Shown piece after piece: positions 1,833-33,042 of a stretch of DNA of 64,000 nucleotides. The position numbers were made by a program, and so were the translations under genes. The first letter of the stretch is position 1, and each line of letters starts with the position of its first letter. The stretch spans positions 32,257 through 96,256 of the forward strand of contig CAZTVZ010000003.1 of assembly GCA_964617045.1 (NCBI GenBank), read 5' to 3'. Source of the stretch: an uncultured Gammaproteobacteria bacterium (GTDB taxonomy: Bacteria > Patescibacteriota > Microgenomatia > UBA8517). Below the pieces are notes generated by a model. That model did not search any database. It was not told the DNA's origin and saw nothing but the letters and a program-made list of their open reading frames with translations.

Positions 1833-2507
1833 TTATATTCCAGGAGGAACAATTCTTGCCTTTACGATTAATCTTTTTGGCCTTCTTGGATCCCCCGGTG
1901 GGACACATGTTACCAGAGACAAAAAAGAATCGCTACTGTCCTGCTCCAATATTTGGATATCCGTAGGATATACTTCAATAAAACTATCAACCTCATAAAT
2001 AAATTCCACACCATCATAAGAAACAAATATCTCGTCTCCTTTTTTCAAAGAAGGTACTGTTGAAAATATTGAGATGTAATCTTTTGGATTATAAAAAATT
2101 GGTAGAATAGAATGACCGAAAACAACAGCATTTCCCCTTTTCCCCGGCAAGGCTGTTCCGGGATATTGAATTAAATGCTTGGACAAGTCATCTCCCCCAA
2201 TAGCAACCGTTGCGTTTTCAATCTTCAATTTTGGAATACTCAAAGAATAGAAAGTAACATTGGAATTTTGAAAAGAACCGGGAGTTTCTCCTTCAAACCA
2301 GTTGCTTACTTTTGTAAAATCTTGAGGGTTAGATTCCGAAATAGCATTTTCTGTACTTTCGATTACGGGACTTAATAATTTTGAGTATTTGGGACTTACA
2401 CTCCCTTGATATTCGATAATCGGAGCTATTACAATCGTCAGTATCATTACCCCCGCAAACCCGGCAATTCCAGCAATTATTTTTAGCAGAAGCTTTTTTC
2501 GAGACAT
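1833..2507 (-). CDS. sortase (transpeptidase), membrane-anchored
   Basis: 224 aa with an N-terminal TM. Sortase catalytic motifs are present: VVFGHS (His), LSLVTCVPP (TLxTC Cys) and a downstream Arg (PRRPKRLIV). Confidence 0.8.
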   Translation of the reverse strand: MSRKKLLLKIIAGIAGFAGVMILTIVIAPIIEYQGSVSPKYSKLLSPVIESTENAISESNPQDFTKVSNWFEGETPGSFQNSNVTFYSLSIPKLKIENATVAIGGDDLSKHLIQYPGTALPGKRGNAVVFGHSILPIFYNPKDYISIFSTVPSLKKGDEIFVSYDGVEFIYEVDSFIEVYPTDIQILEQDSSDSFLSLVTCVPPGDPRRPKRLIVKARIVPPGI

Positions 2508-2519
2508 CTAACTAGTTAA

Positions 2520-4718
2520 TTATTTTTCGGCGGATAATTCAATATCAATGTTCTTTTCAACGTGGGGTAATCTTTGAATTTTGTCTGGGAACGAAACAGA
2601 AATTCGGATATTCGCGTTTCTGAATCCGGGAATAGTAGAAAAATACTCCGTCGCACTTTGTTTCGTTCTTCCTTTTATCTTTTTTGCCAATTCCTCAGTA
2701 TTTACATCAGGTAAAAGATTTGCCTCCAAAATTGTATCCATTACATATACACCTTCGTCTTCCGAATCAACTTCAAATTTGGCTCCAATTTGTTCGTCTT
2801 TTAGTACATACCCTGAAGGAACTCTTTCTTTCAAAAGCTCTTTTGCAAAATCAAAAAATGTTTTTTTGTCTATGGTTAAGGCAGATGCTTCTACATCCAT
2901 TGTAAGTTTCAATGTTGTTGCCTCATCTCCAACTTTTGCAGAGAAAGTGCTGTTTTTTACATCAACCATAACGCTTCCATCGGCAAGATATTTATCTGAG
3001 GGAAGCTTGTTTTGCAATTTGGTTTTGACTTTATCCGTTAATTCGGACAGCAACTCTTCTTCAAGCGCTTCTTGGTCTTCTTTCGATACAGCGCTAATTT
3101 CCCTACTACTTCCCCCAGTAAAAGCCGAGGTCGAAACCGCTTCCACGTCAGCCTTGGGATAATTACTTACCTTAAACTTTTCGTCCCCTGCTAAATTAAA
3201 CCCGTCTCCGATATCCGATGCAACGACCTCAGCAGTTGCGGATCCCGGTTCTGTTGTCGATACGGCTGCAACAATTGAAACCGCACTTACTATCGAATAT
3301 TTCAGACCTCCGCTTGAAGTGATTGCTGTTCCGGCCGCTAAATTAATATCGTTTTCTGTACCGTTAAGAATCTTTACTGTACCTTTAGCTCTTTCTCCAA
3401 CAAGTTTTGTCCCCGTTGTCGATTTTGTTCTCTCTCCCGTATCTTCTTCTGTAACCAGGTTGCCAGGAATAGTCTTATCCGAAACGCTAACTTTTGAAGA
3501 ATTTGTGTCAATGTCGATCTTAATATTGTCTTCCAATTTTTTCGAAGCAATAATCAGTGTGATGTCTGCTTTGGGAATAAACCACCAGGCTGCAAAAAGG
3601 CCAACAAGAAGTAAAACAAATACTGCTATTCCCGTAATAAATATGTTCTTTGTTGGAGTGAGTTCAACATTCGGAACCCTCACATTCAATTTCTTTGGAA
3701 AAATACCCAAAATTGAATCTTTAATGCTTTTCTTCGGTTCACCATATATCGGGGCTGGAGATTGAACGGTAGGTGGATTATTAACGACAGGGTTGGATAC
3801 CGTCTCCACAGAAGAGCTGACGGGGATATCCCTTTTTTCCGAAATATCTTCGTTTAAAGAAAAACCCAGATCTTCCGGATTAATTGTTTCTTGCGGTACT
3901 TCAACGTTTTCAATTTCTTTTGTTTCCTGTTGATAGTTTTCTATCTCTTCAGATTCCACTTTGGTTACACCACCCATTTCAGAAGCACCTGCCAATGCCG
4001 TTGCCAATACTTTATTTTCCGAGTCGATTATTTCTATCTTTGGTGTGTGTAAAAATTTAATCCGTTCTTCGGATTCCCATGACATTTTAAGCAAGGTTTG
4101 CCTGTCTTCTTCCAGCTCTCCTTCTTTCCCGTCATATAAAATGAATCTCGAAGGTAAATTTTCGGTCGTACCAAATCTGGCTAAACCTTCAACCACGTCA
4201 TCCGAAATTGAAACACTTCTCGCAACTAGTGCATTTCCAACAAGATTCCCCAACCTAAAAACCGAGACCTCAATATTTTCTTCCCCAACGCCAAGCACTA
4301 CAGCATTGAGAGGTGCACCTTCTTGCGATTTTGTTAAATGTGCAATTGCTTCCGGTAATACAACAAACCCTGTTGGTTCAAGGGACAATTCTGTACAAAT
4401 TCGTTTAATTGTTCCCAAATGTTCGGCTTTTATTTCCCCATCGCCCACCCATGAAGGCGGAACTCCAAATACCGTTTTGGATGGTTCCGGTATCTCATCG
4501 GGTAATTTTTGAATTGCAGCAGAAAGCACTGTATCAGCAGCCCCTACAATTTCTTCATTTTCTTTCCATGCTGCAGGAGGACTTACTGATACGACTTTTG
4601 CACTTGTTCCCTCAATAAACCATATGCCTGCCTGAACCCATCCCGGTTCAATGGTTAAAGCCCAGTAGTGTTCTGGGGACGAAGATTTATTTCCCTGTAA
4701 TATGCTTCCTATATCCAT
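2520..4718 (-). CDS. bitopic membrane protein: N-terminal actin-like (FtsA/PilM-type) cytoplasmic domain, one TM, large extracytoplasmic domain
   Basis: 732 aa. The N-terminus has phosphate-1-like (ALTIEPGWVQAGIWFIEG) and phosphate-2-like (NAVVLGVGEENIEVSVFRLG) motifs of the actin/FtsA/PilM fold. A TM lies at about residues 355-378 (IFITGIAVFVLLLVGLFAAWWFI), followed by a ~350-aa Ser/Thr/Val-rich ectodomain. It ends 12 nt upstream of the sortase gene. Confidence 0.45.
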   Translation of the reverse strand: MDIGSILQGNKSSSPEHYWALTIEPGWVQAGIWFIEGTSAKVVSVSPPAAWKENEEIVGAADTVLSAAIQKLPDEIPEPSKTVFGVPPSWVGDGEIKAEHLGTIKRICTELSLEPTGFVVLPEAIAHLTKSQEGAPLNAVVLGVGEENIEVSVFRLGNLVGNALVARSVSISDDVVEGLARFGTTENLPSRFILYDGKEGELEEDRQTLLKMSWESEERIKFLHTPKIEIIDSENKVLATALAGASEMGGVTKVESEEIENYQQETKEIENVEVPQETINPEDLGFSLNEDISEKRDIPVSSSVETVSNPVVNNPPTVQSPAPIYGEPKKSIKDSILGIFPKKLNVRVPNVELTPTKNIFITGIAVFVLLLVGLFAAWWFIPKADITLIIASKKLEDNIKIDIDTNSSKVSVSDKTIPGNLVTEEDTGERTKSTTGTKLVGERAKGTVKILNGTENDINLAAGTAITSSGGLKYSIVSAVSIVAAVSTTEPGSATAEVVASDIGDGFNLAGDEKFKVSNYPKADVEAVSTSAFTGGSSREISAVSKEDQEALEEELLSELTDKVKTKLQNKLPSDKYLADGSVMVDVKNSTFSAKVGDEATTLKLTMDVEASALTIDKKTFFDFAKELLKERVPSGYVLKDEQIGAKFEVDSEDEGVYVMDTILEANLLPDVNTEELAKKIKGRTKQSATEYFSTIPGFRNANIRISVSFPDKIQRLPHVEKNIDIELSAEK

Positions 4719-25188: not shown

Positions 25189-25752
25189 ATGGCTGCCCAA
25201 AAAGGCTCAAAACTGATAAATCTTCTACCGCAAGAGGAATTTGCCAATTCCACAATTGGTCGTGTGTTTACGTGGGCAATGAGTACCTTCAGAATTATCG
25301 TTATTGGTATGGAGATGGTCGTCATGGTTGCTTTTCTTTCTCGTTTCTGGTTGGATGCCAGAAATGTTGATTTAAACGACATAATCAAACAAAGATCGGC
25401 TGTGATTGCCGCCCAATCCGATTTTGAAAAAGAATTTAGAGATCTTCAAAAAAGAGTTAAGGTTTTTTCCGGAATAACCGGTGTGGAAAAACTTCCTTCC
25501 GAACAAATTACAATTATTACTTCTTATATACCAAACGATGTCCGACTTGAGGCAATTAACCAGTCGGGTGAAAATTTTCAAATCAGAGGAAATTCTTTTA
25601 ACGAAATATCTATAAGCCAATTTATTGTTAACCTTGAAAAAAGCGGAAATTATGACAAGGTTCAGGTTTCAACACTCGATTCGGATCAAGAAGAGGGCGG
25701 ACTGTTTACATTTACTTTGAGTTTATCCCCCAAGAAAGGAGCATCTAAATAA
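25189..25752 (+). CDS. pilN: PilN-like type IV pilus assembly protein
   Basis: The conserved N-terminal INLLP motif (KLINLLPQEEF) is followed by a single TM and a periplasmic-type domain. Length is 187 aa. Confidence 0.6.
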   Translation: MAAQKGSKLINLLPQEEFANSTIGRVFTWAMSTFRIIVIGMEMVVMVAFLSRFWLDARNVDLNDIIKQRSAVIAAQSDFEKEFRDLQKRVKVFSGITGVEKLPSEQITIITSYIPNDVRLEAINQSGENFQIRGNSFNEISISQFIVNLEKSGNYDKVQVSTLDSDQEEGGLFTFTLSLSPKKGASK

Positions 25753-26406
25753 ATGGCACTCGGCTGGAGAAAAGATTACCTAAGATATCGTGAGCAATTT
25801 CTTAACGTTGTAAAACTTTACCAAAAAAGACAGGACTTAAGAATCTATCTTGAAGTAATTTTGTCTTTACTGACAATTATCTTTTTTGCTTTCTTTGCCT
25901 TAAGACCAACCATTCTGACAATATCTCAACTCTACAAAGACATTCAGGCAAAGGAGGAAGTTGTGCAAAAACTGGAAGAAAAAATAAACAATCTCGAATT
26001 GGCACAAGAATTGGTTGCCGAAAAACAAACAGTAATCGAAATTGCCCGACTGTCTGTTCCTGGCGAACCAACACCGGAAAGTTTTGCCAGACAAATTGAA
26101 GGACTATCACAAACAACAGGTATTACTCTATCGGGAATCTCGGTTGGAGAAGTAACAATACTCGGTGAAGCAAGAAAAACCGCTCAGGATAAAGATTTAA
26201 AACCTCTGCCCGAAGGCTCAATGGGAATGCCATTTACGATCAGTATATCGGGAGAATACGGAAATCTGTTTAATTTCCTCAGAAATTTGGAAAACCTGAG
26301 AAGGCCTGCTTCTATTGATAATATTTCCATTTCATCAACGATAAACGATGAGGGTATTGTAAAAATAACAATGATCGTATCGGGAAGGGTACCTTTTCTC
26401 AAATGA
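25753..26406 (+). CDS. pilO: PilO-like type IV pilus assembly protein
   Basis: Starts 1 nt after pilN. It has an N-terminal TM, a coiled-coil (QAKEEVVQKLEEKINNLELAQELVAEKQ), and a C-terminal ferredoxin-like region. Length is 217 aa. Confidence 0.5.
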   Translation: MALGWRKDYLRYREQFLNVVKLYQKRQDLRIYLEVILSLLTIIFFAFFALRPTILTISQLYKDIQAKEEVVQKLEEKINNLELAQELVAEKQTVIEIARLSVPGEPTPESFARQIEGLSQTTGITLSGISVGEVTILGEARKTAQDKDLKPLPEGSMGMPFTISISGEYGNLFNFLRNLENLRRPASIDNISISSTINDEGIVKITMIVSGRVPFLK

Positions 26407-26744
26407 AAAAATTTAAACCGCCAAGCTTTATCACAATATTAATTCTTACTGCAATTACCGTTGTCTTCTGGATATTTTTTGGTGTCGTAAGAATATTTAC
26501 AAAAGCCGATGAGGAAACTGTACCTGCAGCAATTCTTGCACCGCTATCCCCAACACTTGACAAGGATGTTCTGGATAAACTTCCTTCAAGGGTATATTTT
26601 GATGATAGTCAGATTTCAACAAATGTTGTTAGTTCACCCACACCGACGCCTTCAATCCAAATTCCCACTCCGACAGAAATTCTCGAAGCAACAGAGTCTG
26701 CAACACCAACGGCAACAGAAGGAGCAGTTATAGATGAAGAATAA
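26403..26744 (+). CDS. small bitopic membrane protein with acidic Thr/Pro-rich ectodomain (hypothetical)
   Basis: 113 aa. A TM (FITILILTAITVVFWIFFGVV) is followed by PTPTPSIQIPTPTE. It overlaps pilO by 4 nt and the next gene by 11 nt. Confidence 0.4.
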   Translation: MKKFKPPSFITILILTAITVVFWIFFGVVRIFTKADEETVPAAILAPLSPTLDKDVLDKLPSRVYFDDSQISTNVVSSPTPTPSIQIPTPTEILEATESATPTATEGAVIDEE

Positions 26745-28092
26745 GATTCCAACATTGATTGGTTTAGTAGTTCTTATATTTGGTTTAGCCGCCGGTGTTT
26801 TCCTTGTGCAAAACACAACAATTTTCAGATTGGGAGCTTCAGGAGAAAATGCACCTGAAAATGTAAGAATAACCAATATCTCGGATGTATCATTTACAGT
26901 CAGTTGGACAACATCAAAAGAAACCACGGGATTTATCAAATACGGAGAATCCGACAACTTGGGTAAAACCAAAAATGACGAACTTTCCGAAAAAGGATAT
27001 ACACATTACGCGACGATAAGCGGAGTAAAATCCGAATCTAATTACTATTTCAAAATAAATTCGGAGGGAGTCGATTATGACAACAATGGTGTTCCTTGGG
27101 AATTGACTACTGGACCCAATATACCCACAAACACCAGCCAAACGACCATCTCCGGAACGATACTCGAACAAACAGGTAATCCATCAAAAAATGCAATTGT
27201 ATACGTGACCATTGCAGGAAGCTCCCCTCTCTCGTCAACAACGTCTCAAAACGGATCATGGGTAATTCCGCTAAATTTTGCCAGAACACAGGACTTGTCT
27301 GCGTTTATCTTGATACAAGAATCTTCATCATTACTTGAAATATCCGTTAATGCTGGACCGAAAGGAATTGCTTCCGCACAAATATTTCCTCAATCGGCGA
27401 AACCGGTTCCTGCAATTACTCTTGGAACAACAAACGATTTTAGAAGCAACCCCCCGAGCTCTGTCGACGGAATACCTCAAGCTAACTTAACTATTCCAGA
27501 AATAACAGAGAAGAAATCCGGTTTTAATGTTGATGCCACAGTGGCGTCAAACGATAATAAAACGGTTACTTTAGAAAGCGTTGCAGACGGAGAAAAAATT
27601 TCAAGTGAAAAGCCCGAATTTTTCGGAAGTGGACCTTCTGGTACAACTATTACCATTACTGTTGAAAGCGATCCTCAAAGCGGTGAGGTAAAAGTCAACA
27701 ATTCCGGTGATTGGAATTGGACACCACCGGCAGGATTAGAACCCGGAACTCACACCGTTACAATTACATGGCGTGATGCTGCGGGGATATTAAGAAAACT
27801 TACAAGATCTTTTGTTGTTGAGGCATCAGAAAATCCATCTTTTACCGCGACCCCTTCTGCAACAACAACGGTAACACCAACTGCAACAAAAACACCTACA
27901 CCATCTTTAACACCAACTTCTTCGCCAACACCAACAGCATCTGTTTCAGCAACAAAAACACCTACACCATCTGCAGCACCTACAACACCCGAATCGGGCA
28001 GCTTGACCCCAACAATAATTCTATTTATGATGGGTATAGCGATCATTTTGTTCGCAACTGTTGCTTGGAAGAAATCTGAAATAAATGCCTGA
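26734..28092 (+). CDS. cell-surface protein: N-terminal TM anchor, FN3-like + Ig-like domains, Thr/Pro-rich linker, C-terminal sorting-signal-like TM tail
   Basis: Shows an FN3/purple-acid-phosphatase-N-like motif (VSFTVSWTT...TGFIKYGES...HYATISGVKSESNYYFKI). A long Thr/Pro linker (TATPSATTTVTPTATKTPTPSLTPTSSPTPTASVSATKTPTPS) is followed by TPESGSLTPTIILFMMGIAIILFATVAWKKSEINA. Confidence 0.6.
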   Translation: MKNKIPTLIGLVVLIFGLAAGVFLVQNTTIFRLGASGENAPENVRITNISDVSFTVSWTTSKETTGFIKYGESDNLGKTKNDELSEKGYTHYATISGVKSESNYYFKINSEGVDYDNNGVPWELTTGPNIPTNTSQTTISGTILEQTGNPSKNAIVYVTIAGSSPLSSTTSQNGSWVIPLNFARTQDLSAFILIQESSSLLEISVNAGPKGIASAQIFPQSAKPVPAITLGTTNDFRSNPPSSVDGIPQANLTIPEITEKKSGFNVDATVASNDNKTVTLESVADGEKISSEKPEFFGSGPSGTTITITVESDPQSGEVKVNNSGDWNWTPPAGLEPGTHTVTITWRDAAGILRKLTRSFVVEASENPSFTATPSATTTVTPTATKTPTPSLTPTSSPTPTASVSATKTPTPSAAPTTPESGSLTPTIILFMMGIAIILFATVAWKKSEINA

Positions 28093-29590
28093 CCAAAATC
28101 AAACTGACCCAAATGCTAATCCCATAGAACCTGTTTCCCCTCAGGCTCCCCCCCTACCAATGCCAGAAGAAATTCCCCCAATTACACCGGTTGTTGAAGA
28201 AGCAACACCGAATACCGAACCCATAAAAGAGAATGCCCTGTCCGAAGAAAATGTCCAACCGGCTTTTATGGCAACAGATTCTCCCCCTCCCCCTCCAATC
28301 CTTGAAACTGAAAACCCGACAAGAGAAGAAGTTGAAGGAAAAAGGGAAGATGATAATATGCCTGTTCCTGAAAAACCGAAAAAGAAATCTAAAGGTTTGG
28401 TTATTGGGCTTGTTGCAACTCTTCTTTTGATTGCAGGCTTGGGAGCAGGTGTTGTTTTGGTCAGACAACAACAGGACGTCAGGGAAAAAGCAGTCAGTTG
28501 TGGAGGAGCAGGTGCAACATGCCGCTTAAACGGCGATTGTTGTTCCGGAAAATGTAATTTAACCGGATATTCCGGAACTTGTGCAGCCCCAACAGGAACT
28601 CAAACACAATGTGTAAGCTCTGGAGGTGCCTGCACTTCAACTTCCCAATGTTGTGGAAATTTAAGCTGTAAGGGTGGAAAGTGTTTAACCGAAGAAGCAA
28701 GCACTCCCACTAAAACACCTACTGCAGCCGCGTGTATTGCCATAGGTCAAAGGTGTGCATCGGGAGAAACATGTTGTAATAACGGGAAATGTATTGACAA
28801 CAAGTGTTCACTATCTGGAACCAGTACACCGACTGCTCAACCCAACTGTTCCAAGGAGGGAGAGTTCTGTGGAATTGGAAGTGCAAACACAGGTCCGGTA
28901 AATTGTTGTAGCGGATTAAAATGTGACAATGGATATTCCATAGTCCACGCTACAGGATCAACCGGAAAATGTATAAAGGATGCTCCAAGCTGTGTACCTT
29001 TAGGGAAAAGGTGTGCATCAGGAGAAACATGTTGTAATAACGGGGTATGTTCCAATAATGTATGTGTCGCAACCACCCCTCCTCCGACCACAACCTTGTG
29101 TCCCAAATCATGTGTTGCGTCACCTAAATCAAATTGTAAACCCGGCACTTTCTATCCCAACGAAAGTACAAGCTTGGCTTATGGAGATTGTGGAGGAACA
29201 GGATTCAATGAATATTGTTGCGATCCTATTGACGGGGCACCAACAAAAATTCCGACATCAACAACAACTTCTACTCCCAAACCACCATCGGGTGATTACT
29301 GCCAATGTTTAAATGTTGTCGCATATGACACAAACTGGAACCTGCTAACAACAGATGCGTTGAAAAATCTTAAAGCTGGAGACAAAATAAGGTTCACGGT
29401 AAAAGGGCGGGCTTCAAGCGGAAAGTTCGATAAAGCAAAGTTTAAGATAAATGGACAGGAAACTGCCGAAATGACAACAAAGAAGCCAAACACCGAAGAG
29501 TTCTATTACGAATATACAATTCCTGCAAATGTATATTCATTTAAGATTGACGCCAAAATACATCATGATCAGAAAGGATGGTCAAACTAA
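28085..29590 (+). CDS. membrane-anchored secreted protein with five tandem 6-Cys knottin/hevein-like modules
   Basis: A Pro-rich N-terminal tail precedes a TM (LVIGLVATLLLIAGLGAGVVLV). Five modules follow, each C-x6-C-x5(11)-CC-x3-4-C-x4-15-C (for example CGGAGATCRLNGDCCSGKC...C and CIAIGQRCASGETCCNNGKCIDNKC). A C-terminal ~110-aa beta-rich domain ends the protein. There is no C-terminal TM. Confidence 0.6.
   Translation: MPDQNQTDPNANPIEPVSPQAPPLPMPEEIPPITPVVEEATPNTEPIKENALSEENVQPAFMATDSPPPPPILETENPTREEVEGKREDDNMPVPEKPKKKSKGLVIGLVATLLLIAGLGAGVVLVRQQQDVREKAVSCGGAGATCRLNGDCCSGKCNLTGYSGTCAAPTGTQTQCVSSGGACTSTSQCCGNLSCKGGKCLTEEASTPTKTPTAAACIAIGQRCASGETCCNNGKCIDNKCSLSGTSTPTAQPNCSKEGEFCGIGSANTGPVNCCSGLKCDNGYSIVHATGSTGKCIKDAPSCVPLGKRCASGETCCNNGVCSNNVCVATTPPPTTTLCPKSCVASPKSNCKPGTFYPNESTSLAYGDCGGTGFNEYCCDPIDGAPTKIPTSTTTSTPKPPSGDYCQCLNVVAYDTNWNLLTTDALKNLKAGDKIRFTVKGRASSGKFDKAKFKINGQETAEMTTKKPNTEEFYYEYTIPANVYSFKIDAKIHHDQKGWSN
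28750..29044 (+). repeat. internal 36-nt near-identical duplication (28750-28785 and 29009-29044) inside the Cys-module gene
   Basis: aggtgtgcatcgggagaaacatgttgtaataacggg differs from aggtgtgcatcaggagaaacatgttgtaataacggg at a single position. Both encode RCASGETCCNNG in modules 3 and 5. Confidence 0.8.
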
Positions 29591-29592
29591 TT

Positions 29593-30144
29593 ATGAAAAA
29601 TAAAGCCGTATCAATAATAATTTTGGTAATAACTTTACTTTTGGCGGGAGTTGCGATATTCACCGCTGTCAGATTGTACCAACTTAGACAAGAGTCTGTG
29701 GCTCCAACTGCACCAGAAAGTGAACCTGCTGCTGCTGCACCCGAATCATGTAGCTCGCTCTCCTTTACGATTGGTGAACCAACCGGAACACCGACAAACA
29801 CAATTACAACTACGCCAATTGTTAAAGATTGTGCACAGTCGTGTGCAGCCAGTAGTGAATGTAAATCCGGACTTATTTGTTCCAACGGATCATGCAGAAA
29901 TCCTTCTTGTACATCCGAAACAGATTGTGTCTGTCCAACAGCAACAACCACAACAACTTCAACACCTACCGCGACATCGACTGTAACCTCAACAGTAACG
30001 ACAACTGCAACTTCGACATCGACTGTAACCTCAACAATTACGCCAACGGCAACTCTACCAGATGCAGGCATTCCTGCTCCGACAGTATTCGGAATTAGTT
30101 TCGGTGTCCTACTCCTTATTATTGCCGTTGCTCTCGCGCTTTAA
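29593..30144 (+). CDS. small Cys-rich surface protein with Thr-rich linker and LPDAG + C-terminal TM sorting-signal-like tail
   Basis: Has a signal-anchor (MKNKAVSIIILVITLLLAGVAIFTAV) and an 8-Cys module (CAQSCAASSECKSGLICSNGSCRNPSCTSETDCVC). A poly-Thr linker is followed by TLPDAGIPAPTVFGISFGVLLLIIAVALAL. An alternative start at 29578 is possible. Confidence 0.5.
   Translation: MKNKAVSIIILVITLLLAGVAIFTAVRLYQLRQESVAPTAPESEPAAAAPESCSSLSFTIGEPTGTPTNTITTTPIVKDCAQSCAASSECKSGLICSNGSCRNPSCTSETDCVCPTATTTTTSTPTATSTVTSTVTTTATSTSTVTSTITPTATLPDAGIPAPTVFGISFGVLLLIIAVALAL
29930..30060 (+). repeat. low-complexity Thr/Ser codon repeat (linker-coding), including a direct 21-nt repeat acatcgactgtaacctcaaca x2
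   Basis: ACN/TCN-rich. Similar linker-coding tracts occur at about 27850-27990 and about 30740-30900. Confidence 0.7.
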
Positions 30145-30192: not shown

Positions 30193-30981
30193 ATGTTCGA
30201 TCAAAACCAACAAAATCAAATTCCTTTCACCCCACCACCGGTCCCTCAGGGAGAACCGGTTCCTCCACAACCAATGGACATGCCACCCATGCCTCAAATG
30301 GGTATCGCAACTCCTCCTCCCGGAGAAAAGAAAGCCGCCAGCGGAAAAATAATTGCAACCGTGTTTGCAATTTTCATCCTTGTCGGTGGACTTGCGGCAG
30401 GATTGATTCTTGTAAGAAGAAATCAAGACTTAAGAGAGCAAGCAGAAACAACCTGTGTTGAAGAATGCCCGGGTGTCGATTCCGGTGGAAGAAGCGTTTT
30501 AAGAAACTGTACACCGCCAGAAGCCGACGGCACTTCTGACGATCAAATCTGTAACTTGGCTGGCAGAACAGGACAGTGTGGAGGACAACAATATTGTTGT
30601 CCGGCAGCAGGAGGGGTTTGGACAACAAATATGACAGCGTGTACGCCCAAGGAATCTGTGTGCAACGATTCCATAGACAATGACAATGATGGATTAACCG
30701 ATTGTACCGACTCTGATTGTTCGACTTCGACATATTGCCAAGCAACACCTACCGAAACACCTTCCATTACATCGACGCCGTCGGCAACAACAACGATAAG
30801 CCCAACTTCAACCGCAACTTCGACGGCAACAATAACAGCAACAAAAACACCGACTTTGACATCAACTGCAACAGCAACTGTCAGCCCACCCATTCCAGAT
30901 TCAGGTCTTCCACTTCCAACCGTGATAGCATTTGGTTTTGGGGCACTACTTGTAATAATCTCCTTGGTACTTGTCCTTTAA
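30193..30981 (+). CDS. Cys-rich surface protein: Pro-rich N-tail, TM, hevein/knottin-like and TSP3-like Ca-binding Cys motifs, Thr linker, IPDSG + C-terminal TM tail
   Basis: The N-terminus is PFTPPPVPQGEPVPPQPMDMPPMPQ, with a TM (IIATVFAIFILVGGLAAGLILV). It contains CNLAGRTGQCGGQQYCC (C-x8-C-x5-CC) and CNDSIDNDNDGLTDCTDSDC (DxDxDGxxDxxD). It ends PPIPDSGLPLPTVIAFGFGALLVIISLVLVL. Confidence 0.5.
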   Translation: MFDQNQQNQIPFTPPPVPQGEPVPPQPMDMPPMPQMGIATPPPGEKKAASGKIIATVFAIFILVGGLAAGLILVRRNQDLREQAETTCVEECPGVDSGGRSVLRNCTPPEADGTSDDQICNLAGRTGQCGGQQYCCPAAGGVWTTNMTACTPKESVCNDSIDNDNDGLTDCTDSDCSTSTYCQATPTETPSITSTPSATTTISPTSTATSTATITATKTPTLTSTATATVSPPIPDSGLPLPTVIAFGFGALLVIISLVLVL

Positions 30982-31008: not shown

Positions 31009-33042
31009 ATGGATTATCTGAGCATTTTATATTGGTGGATATTTTTATTTTTACTGGGGCTTATAAACTACCCTTTTTCGTTCATTCTTCTGAGGAAAAA
31101 CTCCGATCGCGGTTACGGATTATCCAAAATTATATCTCTTCTTCTGATTAGCTACATCCTTCTTTTGGGTTCTTCGCTCAAGTTGTTTCCTTTTACGATA
31201 TATTCTTCCCTTTCCGCGTTGCTTCTTCTTGTTTTTGTTAACACACTAATCTTTCTAAAAAATAAAAGGGAAATTATTCGTGACACAAAACTAACTATTC
31301 GATTAATTATCTTTCAGGAAATATTATTTTCCTCCGCATTACTCTTTTGGTCTTTTATTAAAATGCACAACCCTGACATTCGAAGCTTGGAAAAATTTAT
31401 GGATTACGGGTTTATAAACTCGATCTTAAAAAGCCCTTGGCAACCTGCTCAGGACATGTGGTTTGCCGGAGGAAAAATAAATTATTATTATTTCGGACAT
31501 TTCTATACTGCAGTTGCCACAAGATTGTCTTTTCTGCCCAGCTCAATTACTTACAACCTCATGCTGTCCACAATTTTAGGGTTTTTAGTTAACGGAGCCT
31601 ATTCTCTGGTGCACACGATTTTTTCATCTCTCCCTAAAGGGATCAACAAAAAAGCGGTTTCTGCAGGGATAATTTCATTTCTGCTTGTATCTTTCGCGGG
31701 AAATTTCCATACGCCGATATATGCCTTTCAAAAAGGAATCGATAAATATTGGTATCCGGATGCGACAAGATTCATCGGTTATAATCCCGACACCAACGAC
31801 AAAACAATACATGAATTTCCCCTCTACTCTTTCGTCGTGTCTGATCTGCATGCCCACTTATTGGGAATTCCAATCGTAATTCTTTATTTGAGTTTCCTGT
31901 TCATGATTTTCGGCTCTTCCGAAAATATAACATTTCGAAAACGCATCCCGTTCTTGCTGTTCCCAGGATTTTTATTCGGGCTTATGTTTATGACCAACAC
32001 CTGGGATTTTGCCTCATATATGCTAATCACCGGAGTTTGCCTCGTTATGTCACGGATATCTCTATTTAAAGATATTGGCAATATTTCTCAAGCCGTCTAT
32101 GACATTTCTTTAAACATTATTATTCTTCTTGTTATTGGCTTGATTACTGCGCTTCCGTTTATCCTTAATTTCGAATCAATTGCGGAGGGTGTGCAATTTG
32201 TAACTTCACGCTCCCCGGTTTGGCAATTGTTAATCTTATGGGGACTTCCGATACTACTTCTTGTTTTCTTTTCGGCTTTTATTATCGCAAAAAAGAAAGC
32301 CGAAAAATCAGATCTCTTTATTTTGGGACTATTGGTATCCTCTATTCTTCTCATTATCATCCCTGAAATCATATACGTAAAAGACATTTATATTGCATCT
32401 CATTACAGGGCCAATACTATGTTTAAAATTACCTATCAAGCATTTGTAATAGGTTATCTTTCGAGTGGATATGTTGCATTAAGAATAATCACTGGAATAA
32501 AAAATATTCCGTTTCGTATATTGTCCACAACGGTTTTTACTTTGCTATTTTCTGCAATGCTGACGTATCCGTTTTTTGCAGTAAATTCATATTTCGACAA
32601 ACTGGAAAACAAAACTGGCTTAAATGGAGAAACTTGGATTAAAAACACCTATCCCTCAACATATCGTGCTATTGAATATTTAAGGAATACCGTTTCCGAA
32701 CAAAAAATAATTACTGAAGCATCTGGAAACAGCTATACGGACTACAACGTAATTTCCAGCTATACTGGCCTTCCAACAATACAAGGGTGGTTTGTCCACG
32801 AGTGGTTATGGAGAGGAAGTGCAGAATTGCCCTCAGAAAGAGTCTCTGATCTGGAGATTCTATACACATCGAAAAATATTAACGAAGTAAAAAAGATAAT
32901 AGAAAAATATAAAGTTAACTACTTAATATACGGTTTTTTTGAAAAAGAAAAATATCCCAACAACAACGAACTATTAATAGACAGTCTCGGAGAAATAGTA
33001 TTTACCGATGGTGATACTACTATTTATTCAGTTGATTATTAA
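31009..33042 (+). CDS. DUF2298 / 'YYY'-domain polytopic membrane protein (GT-C-type putative glycosyltransferase)
   Basis: 677 aa with more than 12 predicted TMs. The signature Tyr triplet GGKINYYYFGHFYTAV is present. A C-terminal soluble domain follows. Confidence 0.65.
   Translation: MDYLSILYWWIFLFLLGLINYPFSFILLRKNSDRGYGLSKIISLLLISYILLLGSSLKLFPFTIYSSLSALLLLVFVNTLIFLKNKREIIRDTKLTIRLIIFQEILFSSALLFWSFIKMHNPDIRSLEKFMDYGFINSILKSPWQPAQDMWFAGGKINYYYFGHFYTAVATRLSFLPSSITYNLMLSTILGFLVNGAYSLVHTIFSSLPKGINKKAVSAGIISFLLVSFAGNFHTPIYAFQKGIDKYWYPDATRFIGYNPDTNDKTIHEFPLYSFVVSDLHAHLLGIPIVILYLSFLFMIFGSSENITFRKRIPFLLFPGFLFGLMFMTNTWDFASYMLITGVCLVMSRISLFKDIGNISQAVYDISLNIIILLVIGLITALPFILNFESIAEGVQFVTSRSPVWQLLILWGLPILLLVFFSAFIIAKKKAEKSDLFILGLLVSSILLIIIPEIIYVKDIYIASHYRANTMFKITYQAFVIGYLSSGYVALRIITGIKNIPFRILSTTVFTLLFSAMLTYPFFAVNSYFDKLENKTGLNGETWIKNTYPSTYRAIEYLRNTVSEQKIITEASGNSYTDYNVISSYTGLPTIQGWFVHEWLWRGSAELPSERVSDLEILYTSKNINEVKKIIEKYKVNYLIYGFFEKEKYPNNNELLIDSLGEIVFTDGDTTIYSVDY

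Follow-up and report, generated by a model that had tools for sequence, protein, structure and literature searches.

The DNA studied here is a 64,000-nucleotide stretch (the window) of contig CAZTVZ010000003.1, assembly GCA_964617045.1, and the gene of interest (the target) lies on its plus strand at positions 28085-29590. We predict that this gene encodes a membrane-anchored surface protein of Candidatus Woesebacteria whose ectodomain bears five tandem modules of the inhibitor-cystine-knot (ICK, or knottin) fold. What is new here is the setting of a predicted knottin-fold repeat, in a Woesebacteria protein family not described before; as a module it is common. Our preferred interpretation, to which we assign a probability of about one half, is that the target is a type II surface protein in which the knottin array would serve as a species-specific spacer or binding cassette, with the conserved function residing in the membrane anchor and the C-terminal head. 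An earlier note on this DNA had reported an open reading frame (ORF) with five tandem six-cysteine modules and their common framework, all of which were found as claimed; it overlooked a sixth cysteine module, a C-terminal beta-sandwich of about 100 residues, and the operon context.

Layout of the target protein

The target gene and the parts of its product are as follows.

28085..29590, plus strand: whole target gene, 501 aa; predicted type II (N-in/C-out) membrane-anchored surface protein
28085..28384, plus strand: Pro/Glu-rich N-terminal tail, aa 1-100, predicted cytoplasmic from its composition and from KPKKKSK before the transmembrane helix
28391..28489, plus strand: transmembrane helix (aa 103-125; hydropathy maximum aa 105-125) and juxtamembrane motif VLVRQQQDVREKA (to aa 135)
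28499..28582, plus strand: ICK-like module 1, aa 139-166, CGGAGATCRLNGDCCSGKCNLTGYSGTC, spacing C6C5CC3C8C
28610..28684, plus strand: ICK-like module 2, aa 176-200, spacing C6C5CC4C4C
28733..28807, plus strand: ICK-like module 3, aa 217-241, spacing C6C5CC4C4C; the module modelled with AlphaFold2
28847..28972, plus strand: ICK-like module 4, aa 255-296, spacing C6C11CC4C15C, with long loops 2 and 5
28991..29065, plus strand: ICK-like module 5, aa 303-327, spacing C6C5CC4C4C; paralogue of module 3
29099..29221, plus strand: sixth Cys module, of a different type, aa 339-379, C3C7C17C8CC, motif GDCG...EYCC
29294..29587, plus strand: C-terminal Ig/Fn3-like beta-sandwich (the head), aa 404-501, family hallmark, beginning at the near-invariant Cys408

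Residues 1-100 include 24 prolines and 16 glutamates, and the lysine cluster KPKKKSK stands just N-terminal of the sole strongly hydrophobic segment (approximately aa 103-125). The position of this cluster before the transmembrane segment favors the N-in/C-out orientation. The topology proposed in the earlier note, with a Pro-rich cytoplasmic tail, a signal-anchor and a cysteine-rich ectodomain, fits the composition, the lysine cluster and the single transmembrane segment. All 38 cysteines of the protein are C-terminal of that segment.

The five modules share the framework C-x3-G-x2-C-x5/11-CC-x3/4-C-x4-15-C, and when they are aligned the invariant positions are the six cysteines and a glycine at +4 after the first cysteine. 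The linkers between them are 6-16 residues long and high in Thr, Pro, Ser and Ala. Aromatic residues are absent from modules 2, 3 and 5, with one in module 1 and two in module 4. The sixth module, which has no Pfam match, is of a type that is also conserved in homologues P0004, P0005, P0008 and P0018. In the window protein, Cys408 at the start of the head is part of a C406-Q-C408 motif (29300-29308).

Predicted fold of the modules

A profile built from nine modules was searched against all PDB sequences and matched ICK peptides almost exclusively. The best matches were to Xt3a, a double-ICK toxin (E 6.6e-8), to DkTx, a double-knot toxin (1.2e-7), and to Ep-AMP1, a knottin from a plant (4e-5), with the top seven spanning E values from 6.6e-8 to 1e-3 and further matches to U5-scytotoxin, omega-atracotoxin and conotoxins. 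All six module cysteines were in register with those of the ICK toxins in these alignments. The resemblance reaches the level of motifs in module 4, where CSKEGEFC...CCSGLKC may be set beside CNQEGEFC...CCAGLSC and CSEEGTFC...CCSGLKC of Xt3a. The spacings of all five modules lie in the knottin range, being 6/5/0/3-4/4-8 in four of them and 6/11/0/4/15 in module 4. As a negative control, a profile of the equally cysteine-rich sixth module was searched in the same way and gave zero PDB matches at E<=10. The almost exclusively knottin PDB matches, the null result of this control and the 406 multi-module proteins described below together argue that the module framework is beyond chance.

Module 3 was modelled with AlphaFold2 as a 33-aa sequence with an input alignment of 140 modules. 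The mean predicted local distance difference test score (pLDDT) was 87.8, and it was 90 or higher at 24 of the 33 residues. The model contains a C-terminal beta-hairpin spanning Cys V and Cys VI that can be superimposed on known knottins. A Foldseek search with the model returned 31 matches with template-modelling scores of up to 0.67, and every one is of knottin type: a cyclotide, and peptides of spiders, scorpions, sponges, plants and cone snails. For a domain this small, such scores are not significant by themselves. The knottin-like backbone of the model (pLDDT 88), the PDB profile and the knottin-only fold matches bear out the ICK assignment made in the earlier note, which had proposed structure prediction as a check. 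We consider the ICK fold of the modules to be well supported as a prediction, and we infer their disulfide connectivity, which in a knottin is I-IV, II-V and III-VI with the third bond passing through the ring.

The earlier note had also likened the modules to hevein-type (CBM18) chitin-binding domains. The two are alike as small disulfide-rich modules with a CC doublet, and two of the target modules have a CCS-like motif. However, hevein has eight cysteines, a conserved serine and an aromatic triad, whereas the target modules have six cysteines, nearly no aromatic residues, and no equivalent of the chitin-binding serine with its three aromatics. PF00187 had no match at E<=1 for the full protein or at E<=10 for single modules, and no chain of hevein or wheat germ agglutinin was among the 60 PDB matches of the module profile. 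Hevein-like chitin binding is not supported.

The target modules and the ICK toxins (DkTx/tau-theraphotoxin-Hs1a, remipede Xt3a, spider Toxin_12-type toxins, O-superfamily conotoxins and Ep-AMP1) are alike in the C-C-CC-C-C pattern, loop lengths, loop-1 glycine, CxxEGExC...CCxGLxC motif, predicted backbone and C-terminal hairpin, and the double-knot toxins also have a tandem arrangement. Unlike these toxins, the target is bacterial and carries five copies on a membrane-anchored protein of 501 aa instead of being a free secreted peptide, lacks a propeptide and processing sites, and falls below the Pfam thresholds. Its modules also have very few of the charged, hydrophobic and aromatic surface residues that toxins use as pharmacophores.

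Occurrence of the module in other proteins

The module profile was also searched against a library of 1.84 billion representative proteins, where 406 proteins carried the module at E<=1e-3 and 33 at E<=1e-10. Approximately 741 modules with this framework occur in the best 150 of the 406. Most frequent in these 150 proteins are the spacings C6C5CC4C4C (211 modules) and C6C5CC3C4C (149 modules), and glycine occurs at +4 in 84% of the modules. The proteins that we inspected are mostly prokaryotic-looking, although a few may be eukaryotic. Some have a Tat-like MDxQRFD...RR leader and an LPXTG anchor, some are high-GC and lipoprotein-like with up to 22 modules, and others have a transmembrane anchor. 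For two of them the source contigs, 113 kb and 293 kb long, were looked up, and the genes on these are prokaryotic in character.

Neither Pfam nor NCBIfam includes a model made for this knottin-like module. In 137 of the module proteins the Pfam models that matched the repeats were all of ICK type, apart from the look-alikes Dickkopf_N and EB (Conotoxin_I2 in 42, Toxin_12 in 35, Dickkopf_N in 35), and several related bacterial multi-module proteins exceed the cut-offs of Toxin_12, Conotoxin_I2 or Toxin_35. The module occurs elsewhere with Peptidase_M23 (P0045, L041 6001-7995), GH25 muramidase, CBM96 and a type IV pilin N-terminus; in P0176, a type IV pilin, two modules stand at the C-terminus. 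These fusions may be clues to a role at the cell envelope or in binding.

The earlier note regarded such modules as unusual in bacteria, which does not agree with the hundreds of mostly prokaryotic-looking proteins that have them in tandem. A family of "bacterial knottins", with no experimental structure, is already included in the KNOTTIN database (PMC5753296), and a survey of secreted cysteine-rich repeat proteins (SCREPs) reported bacterial tandem cysteine-rich repeat proteins to be numerous (PMC6262176). That database mention and general SCREP papers were all that a literature search on bacterial knottins and Woesebacteria cysteine-rich proteins found. The two classes resemble the target in having predicted bacterial knottin modules and tandem disulfide-rich repeats, respectively, and the 406 module proteins fit this bacterial knottin/SCREP class. 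The target differs from the class in being a membrane-anchored protein of the candidate phyla radiation (CPR) that combines the array with a family-specific head and is encoded in a pilN/pilO operon. Judged from these searches, the module is a widespread, uncharacterised prokaryotic repeat and not a rarity.

Internal repeat and selection

Modules 3 and 5 share a DNA repeat with a core of 38 nt that contains one mismatch.

28743..28792, plus strand: repeat copy 1, inside module 3, 50 nt, 90% identical to copy 2
29001..29050, plus strand: repeat copy 2, inside module 5, 50 nt, 90% identical to copy 1

The earlier note had given this repeat as a 36-nt segment with one mismatch (28750-28785 versus 29009-29044); the repeat is real, but these coordinates are one base off. 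It had also taken the repeat to imply a very recent module duplication in an actively evolving effector. We compared the window with a sister strain, L037, which is 88% identical in the target gene (dS approximately 0.6) and has the same five modules in the same order. Both copies are already present at the same positions in L037, and the duplication that gave rise to modules 3 and 5 is therefore older than the strain split.

Within the window, modules 3 and 5 are identical at 56 of 75 nt, including 37 of 38 in the core, and within L037 at 48 of 75. Orthologous modules of the two strains are identical at 65 of 75 nt (module 3) and 62 of 75 (module 5). At two synonymous sites, both window copies have one base and both L037 copies have the other. 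The near-identical core of modules 3 and 5 is best explained, from these sequence comparisons, by short-tract gene conversion.

The ratio of non-synonymous to synonymous substitution rates (dN/dS) between the two strains is 0.05 for the whole target gene, with 145 synonymous and 35 non-synonymous differences over 1.5 kb. The gene is under purifying selection, with ratios of 0.05 in the ICK modules, 0.01 in the sixth module and linker, 0.01 in the C-terminal head, and 0.15 in the N-terminal tail, the least constrained part. Turnover of the middle region is visible only between species. With these ratios, and with the gene being a syntenic orthologue at a core locus (see below), an actively evolving, arms-race effector is not supported over the time that separates the two strains; nor, with both copies present in L037, is a very recent duplication.

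Protein family and host lineage

A homologue search with the target found a protein 94% identical to it (P0001) and 39 others that match only at the N-terminus and in the C-terminal ~100 aa. The family N-terminus consists of MPDQN..., a Pro-rich tail, a transmembrane segment and the motif VLVRQQQDIREKA, with the pattern VLVRQQQD[IV]REKA; the target has all of these. Over the part of the C-terminal ~100 aa that matched, identity is 45-81%. In the head, modelled as a beta-sandwich, identity to the homologues is 50-81%; W, N, Y and W residues are invariant, and a near-invariant cysteine stands at the start. A word-indexed search with a profile of this domain gave 37 proteins, mostly short fragments, and added nothing.

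The middle region is wholly different between species. In the orthologues it contains other Cys modules, acidic double-disulfide repeats, an SLH domain, a cohesin domain, or almost nothing, and family members range from approximately 228 to 563 aa in length, some without modules. Single ICK modules were found in P0002, P0003, P0018 and P0024, and the five-module array only in the window and its sister strain.

One genome per species was scanned for the head domain, which was found in 32 species genomes. Where the titles of these genomes give the lineage, they name Candidatus Woesebacteria, Microgenomates or Patescibacteria. About a dozen metagenome-assembled genomes (L008, L012, L013, L015, L016, L018, L023, L026, L029, L031, L034 and L035) are titled "uncultured Gammaproteobacteria" or Alphaproteobacteria, and most of them have the full Woesebacteria-type operon; these labels are probably wrong. 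On sequence grounds the target family is unannotated and found almost only in Candidatus Woesebacteria. The CPR origin that the earlier note had entertained is thereby confirmed, the organism belonging to Candidatus Woesebacteria by the distribution of the family across species genomes.

Operon and genomic surroundings

The neighbouring genes are as follows.

25189-25752, plus strand: PilN, INLLP motif, Pfam PF05137; with the next, the first operon genes
25753-26406, plus strand: PilO-like protein, Pfam PF04350
26403-26744, plus strand: 113-aa bitopic protein without family assignment, kept in nearly all loci
26734-28092, plus strand: Cys-free fn3/Big_13 surface protein, overlapping the 113-aa gene and the target
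29578 or 29593 to 30144, plus strand: downstream gene, 183-188 aa, the ATG at 29593 being the probable true start
30193-30981, plus strand: 262-aa paralogue with a target-type N-terminal module, directly after the downstream gene
31009-33042, plus strand: DUF2298/Chlor_Arch_YYY, GT-C-like, beyond the 262-aa gene and followed by LytR-CpsA-Psr, UvrD and FemAB
1833-2507, minus strand: sortase gene, beside a 732-aa ORF (2520-4718) with a weak Baseplate_J match

Minus-strand genes for DnaK, GrpE, HrcA and MurJ precede the plus-strand genes for S20, PilN, the PilO-like protein, the 113-aa protein, the fn3/Big_13 protein and the target. From PilN as far as the gene that follows the target, each reading frame touches or overlaps the next. 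The order S20, PilN, PilO, 113-aa protein, fn3/Big protein, family gene, downstream gene recurs in approximately 28 of 32 species loci, and the target stands in the expected place, downstream of pilN/pilO and between the fn3/Big_13 gene and the gene for the LPxAG protein. It follows from this recurrence that the target is a syntenic orthologue at a core locus and not a gene of an accessory island. An origin in a genomic island or prophage was considered and is ruled out by the synteny. Transfer RNA and Rfam scans gave nothing relevant.

The 113-aa bitopic protein sits roughly at the place of pilP in pilMNOPQ operons. Three neighbouring surface proteins (28000-28092, 30040-30144 and 30880-30981) end in [LIT]P[DE][SA]G..PT followed by a transmembrane segment, mostly without a charged tail, and the consensus of this sortase-like signal across the Woesebacteria loci is LPx[AS]G. 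At the other end, a transmembrane segment followed by LV-R-x-x-Q-D-[IL]-R-E-x-A or FTA-[IV]-RLYQLRQ is common to several surface proteins (28391-28489, 30340-30450, 26734-26840 and 29593-29700). The juxtamembrane motif of the target is kept across the family and in the neighbouring gene at 30193-30981, and the Pro-rich M[PF]DQNQ tail is likewise common to these two proteins. The common N-terminal design may be a clade-specific signal, sorting or cleavage motif. The 262-aa protein ends in a sorting signal, not an Ig-like head; it also contains a GQCGGQQYCC motif that resembles the sixth module of the target, and an acidic double-disulfide repeat that scores 36.7 bits with NF033662, short of the cut-off of 41.

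GT-C-type membrane genes (DUF2298/Chlor_Arch_YYY, PMT/PMT_2) adjoin Thr/Pro-rich surface genes in the window (31009-33042), L001 (9845-12232) and L003 (11033-14669). With the GT-C-like DUF2298 gene adjoining here and PMT genes in other loci, O-glycosylation of the linkers is plausible.

Odd cysteine counts and the downstream protein

In 27 of 29 loci the family protein has an odd number of cysteines, the counts ranging from 1 to 35. The odd total arises because an even number in the variable part is joined by one near-invariant head cysteine (xQC-LNIKAYD). The minimal members, in L018 and L020, have exactly one cysteine, the head cysteine, which as the sole cysteine there cannot pair within the chain. 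The conserved cysteine is not accounted for by a lipobox or a thioester, since its context, xAQC in an Ig-like domain of about 100 aa, fits neither.

The gene directly downstream also encodes a protein with an odd cysteine count, in 28 of 30 loci. The downstream proteins have a conserved lone cysteine in S-C-x-x-L-x-F-x-[IL], approximately 55 residues from the N-terminus, and a conserved C-terminal LPx[AS]G..PT..transmembrane sorting signal. The one in the window has an N-terminal transmembrane segment, with its conserved lone cysteine in SCSSLSFTI, and further along an 8-Cys module and a T-rich linker before the LPDAG sorting signal and a second transmembrane segment. In L025 both partners have an extra cysteine (C-x4-C), giving CINAQC-VDIKAY and CEYGSC-TKLTFTI, and in the cohesin-domain protein P0040 both cysteine motifs occur in one chain with only two cysteines in total. 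We infer from these patterns that the head cysteine and the downstream lone cysteine may form an intermolecular disulfide, perhaps with strand addition. Disulfides are chemically plausible, MdbA/VKOR-type oxidoreductases being enriched in CPR genomes, as are sortase and type IV pilus parts (PMC6744442). The window itself contains no MdbA-like oxidoreductase or VKOR, the sortase alone having been found.

The 8-Cys module C3C5C5C4C4C5C1C (window 29830-29935, aa ~85-118) weakly matches TIGR04201 Myxo_Cys_RPT. The L028, L030 and L037 downstream proteins have it too, as do family members P0015 and P0023 in their variable region. Shuffling seems to move small Cys modules from gene to gene within the operon.

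Function of the array and of the family

We picture the ectodomain as beads on a string, with five predicted knottin modules, the sixth Cys module and the Ig-like beta-sandwich head at the end, joined by Thr/Pro-rich linkers that are probably O-glycosylated. Because the anchor and head are conserved and the array is optional, the core function of the family probably lies in the head and its partners; most likely it is exercised by anchor and head together with the partners from the pilN/pilO-linked operon. The head cysteine would be disulfide-bonded to the conserved lone cysteine of the downstream protein, which ends in a sortase-type LPxAG signal. The array would most plausibly be a protease-resistant, semi-rigid spacer that also offers several small surface-exposed binding faces.

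Several observations weigh against this interpretation. No Pfam or NCBIfam model matches the full target at threshold, and single modules give sub-threshold E values of 0.002-0.07 with Toxin_12, Conotoxin, Conotoxin_I2, Dickkopf_N and EB. The Pfam search proposed in the earlier note yielded sub-threshold knottin-type and look-alike scores, no CBM18/hevein match, and none past the cut-off. The training data of AlphaFold2 included knottins. Most orthologues do without ICK modules, and some without any Cys-rich middle, so the array is not essential to the core function of the family. No other type IV pilus core genes were found in the 64-kb window. In addition, the window target has an even cysteine total owing to the CQC at the conserved site, and its downstream partner has an odd one, so that simple parity pairing fails to close in the window.

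The foremost of the alternatives, although we think it improbable, is that the modules are lectin-like or receptor-binding units (knottin or hevein/CBM18-like) of a multivalent host adhesin or effector, with the array as the main function. A surface-located protein with multivalent modules would suit such a role, and a middle region that is fully different between species is what host-specific binding would predict. ICK modules on a type IV pilin and on M23 and GH25 hydrolases elsewhere hint at cell-envelope binding, and CPR bacteria are believed to rely on contact with other cells (PMC6744442). However, hevein/CBM18 features are not present, and it would be unusual for a glycan-binding site to lack aromatic residues, as modules 2, 3 and 5 do. 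Most orthologues do without the array, whereas the head is always present, and the comparison with the sister strain shows strong purifying selection, with nothing at that distance to point to an arms race. Somewhat less probable still is a PilP-like strut of a pilus alignment or envelope-spanning complex, in which the head would dock on the PilN/PilO platform and the Cys modules would set length and stiffness across the wall or S-layer. PilP of pilMNOPQ operons is built alike, with a long flexible linker that connects its C-terminal beta-sandwich to an N-terminal membrane anchor, and the target stands where pilP and pilQ do, in an operon that begins with pilN and pilO; the wide length range of the family, with its module-free members, also agrees. 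On the other side, the target C-terminal domain showed no similarity to the PilP/GspC HR domain, no pilM, pilB, pilC or pilin gene lies nearby in the window, and a dN/dS of 0.05 in the modules is not expected of a pure spacer, though the Cys/Gly framework explains part of it.

Multi-knottin precursors occur in plants and animals, and the modules resemble Ep-AMP1, omega-atracotoxin and conotoxins, so one might suppose that the target is a polyprotein whose linkers are cleaved to release knottin peptides as toxins or antimicrobials against hosts or competitors. We think this very unlikely, and the least probable of these three alternatives. The linkers contain no dibasic or other recognisable processing sites and are Thr/Pro-rich as in stalk regions, and the protein is membrane-anchored with a conserved folded C-terminal domain. 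That the target has no curated family match might suggest a chance or low-complexity cysteine pattern in a non-functional ORF, but this is refuted by the constraint over 1.5 kb, the syntenic orthologues and the 406 proteins with related modules.

The preferred interpretation, a type II surface protein with a species-specific array between conserved anchor and head, can be extended to a disulfide-coupled two-protein surface device of the Woesebacteria with PilN/PilO. In such a device, which has not been described before, the head would be covalently locked by its lone cysteine, perhaps with beta-strand addition, to the sortase-anchored partner, and the knottin array would be an exposed host-recognition loop or stalk. 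We put this forward as a doubtful possibility, a little behind the strut.

Significance

Knottins are textbook venom and defence peptides of eukaryotes and are valued as drug scaffolds. Bacterial knottins are, to our knowledge, known only as database predictions, without structure or known function. The locus described here provides a concrete, testable case, with five predicted knottins on one CPR surface protein. Tandem knottin-like repeats appear to form a large class of prokaryotic surface modules, fused to pilins, peptidoglycan hydrolases and LPXTG anchors. In a phylum about whose cell biology very little has been learned, the operon linked to pilN/pilO, which encodes the paired "odd cysteine" proteins, is a candidate for an envelope structure or an attachment device. 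If the disulfide-coupled device proved to be real, bacterial knottins would be recognition elements of CPR episymbiosis.

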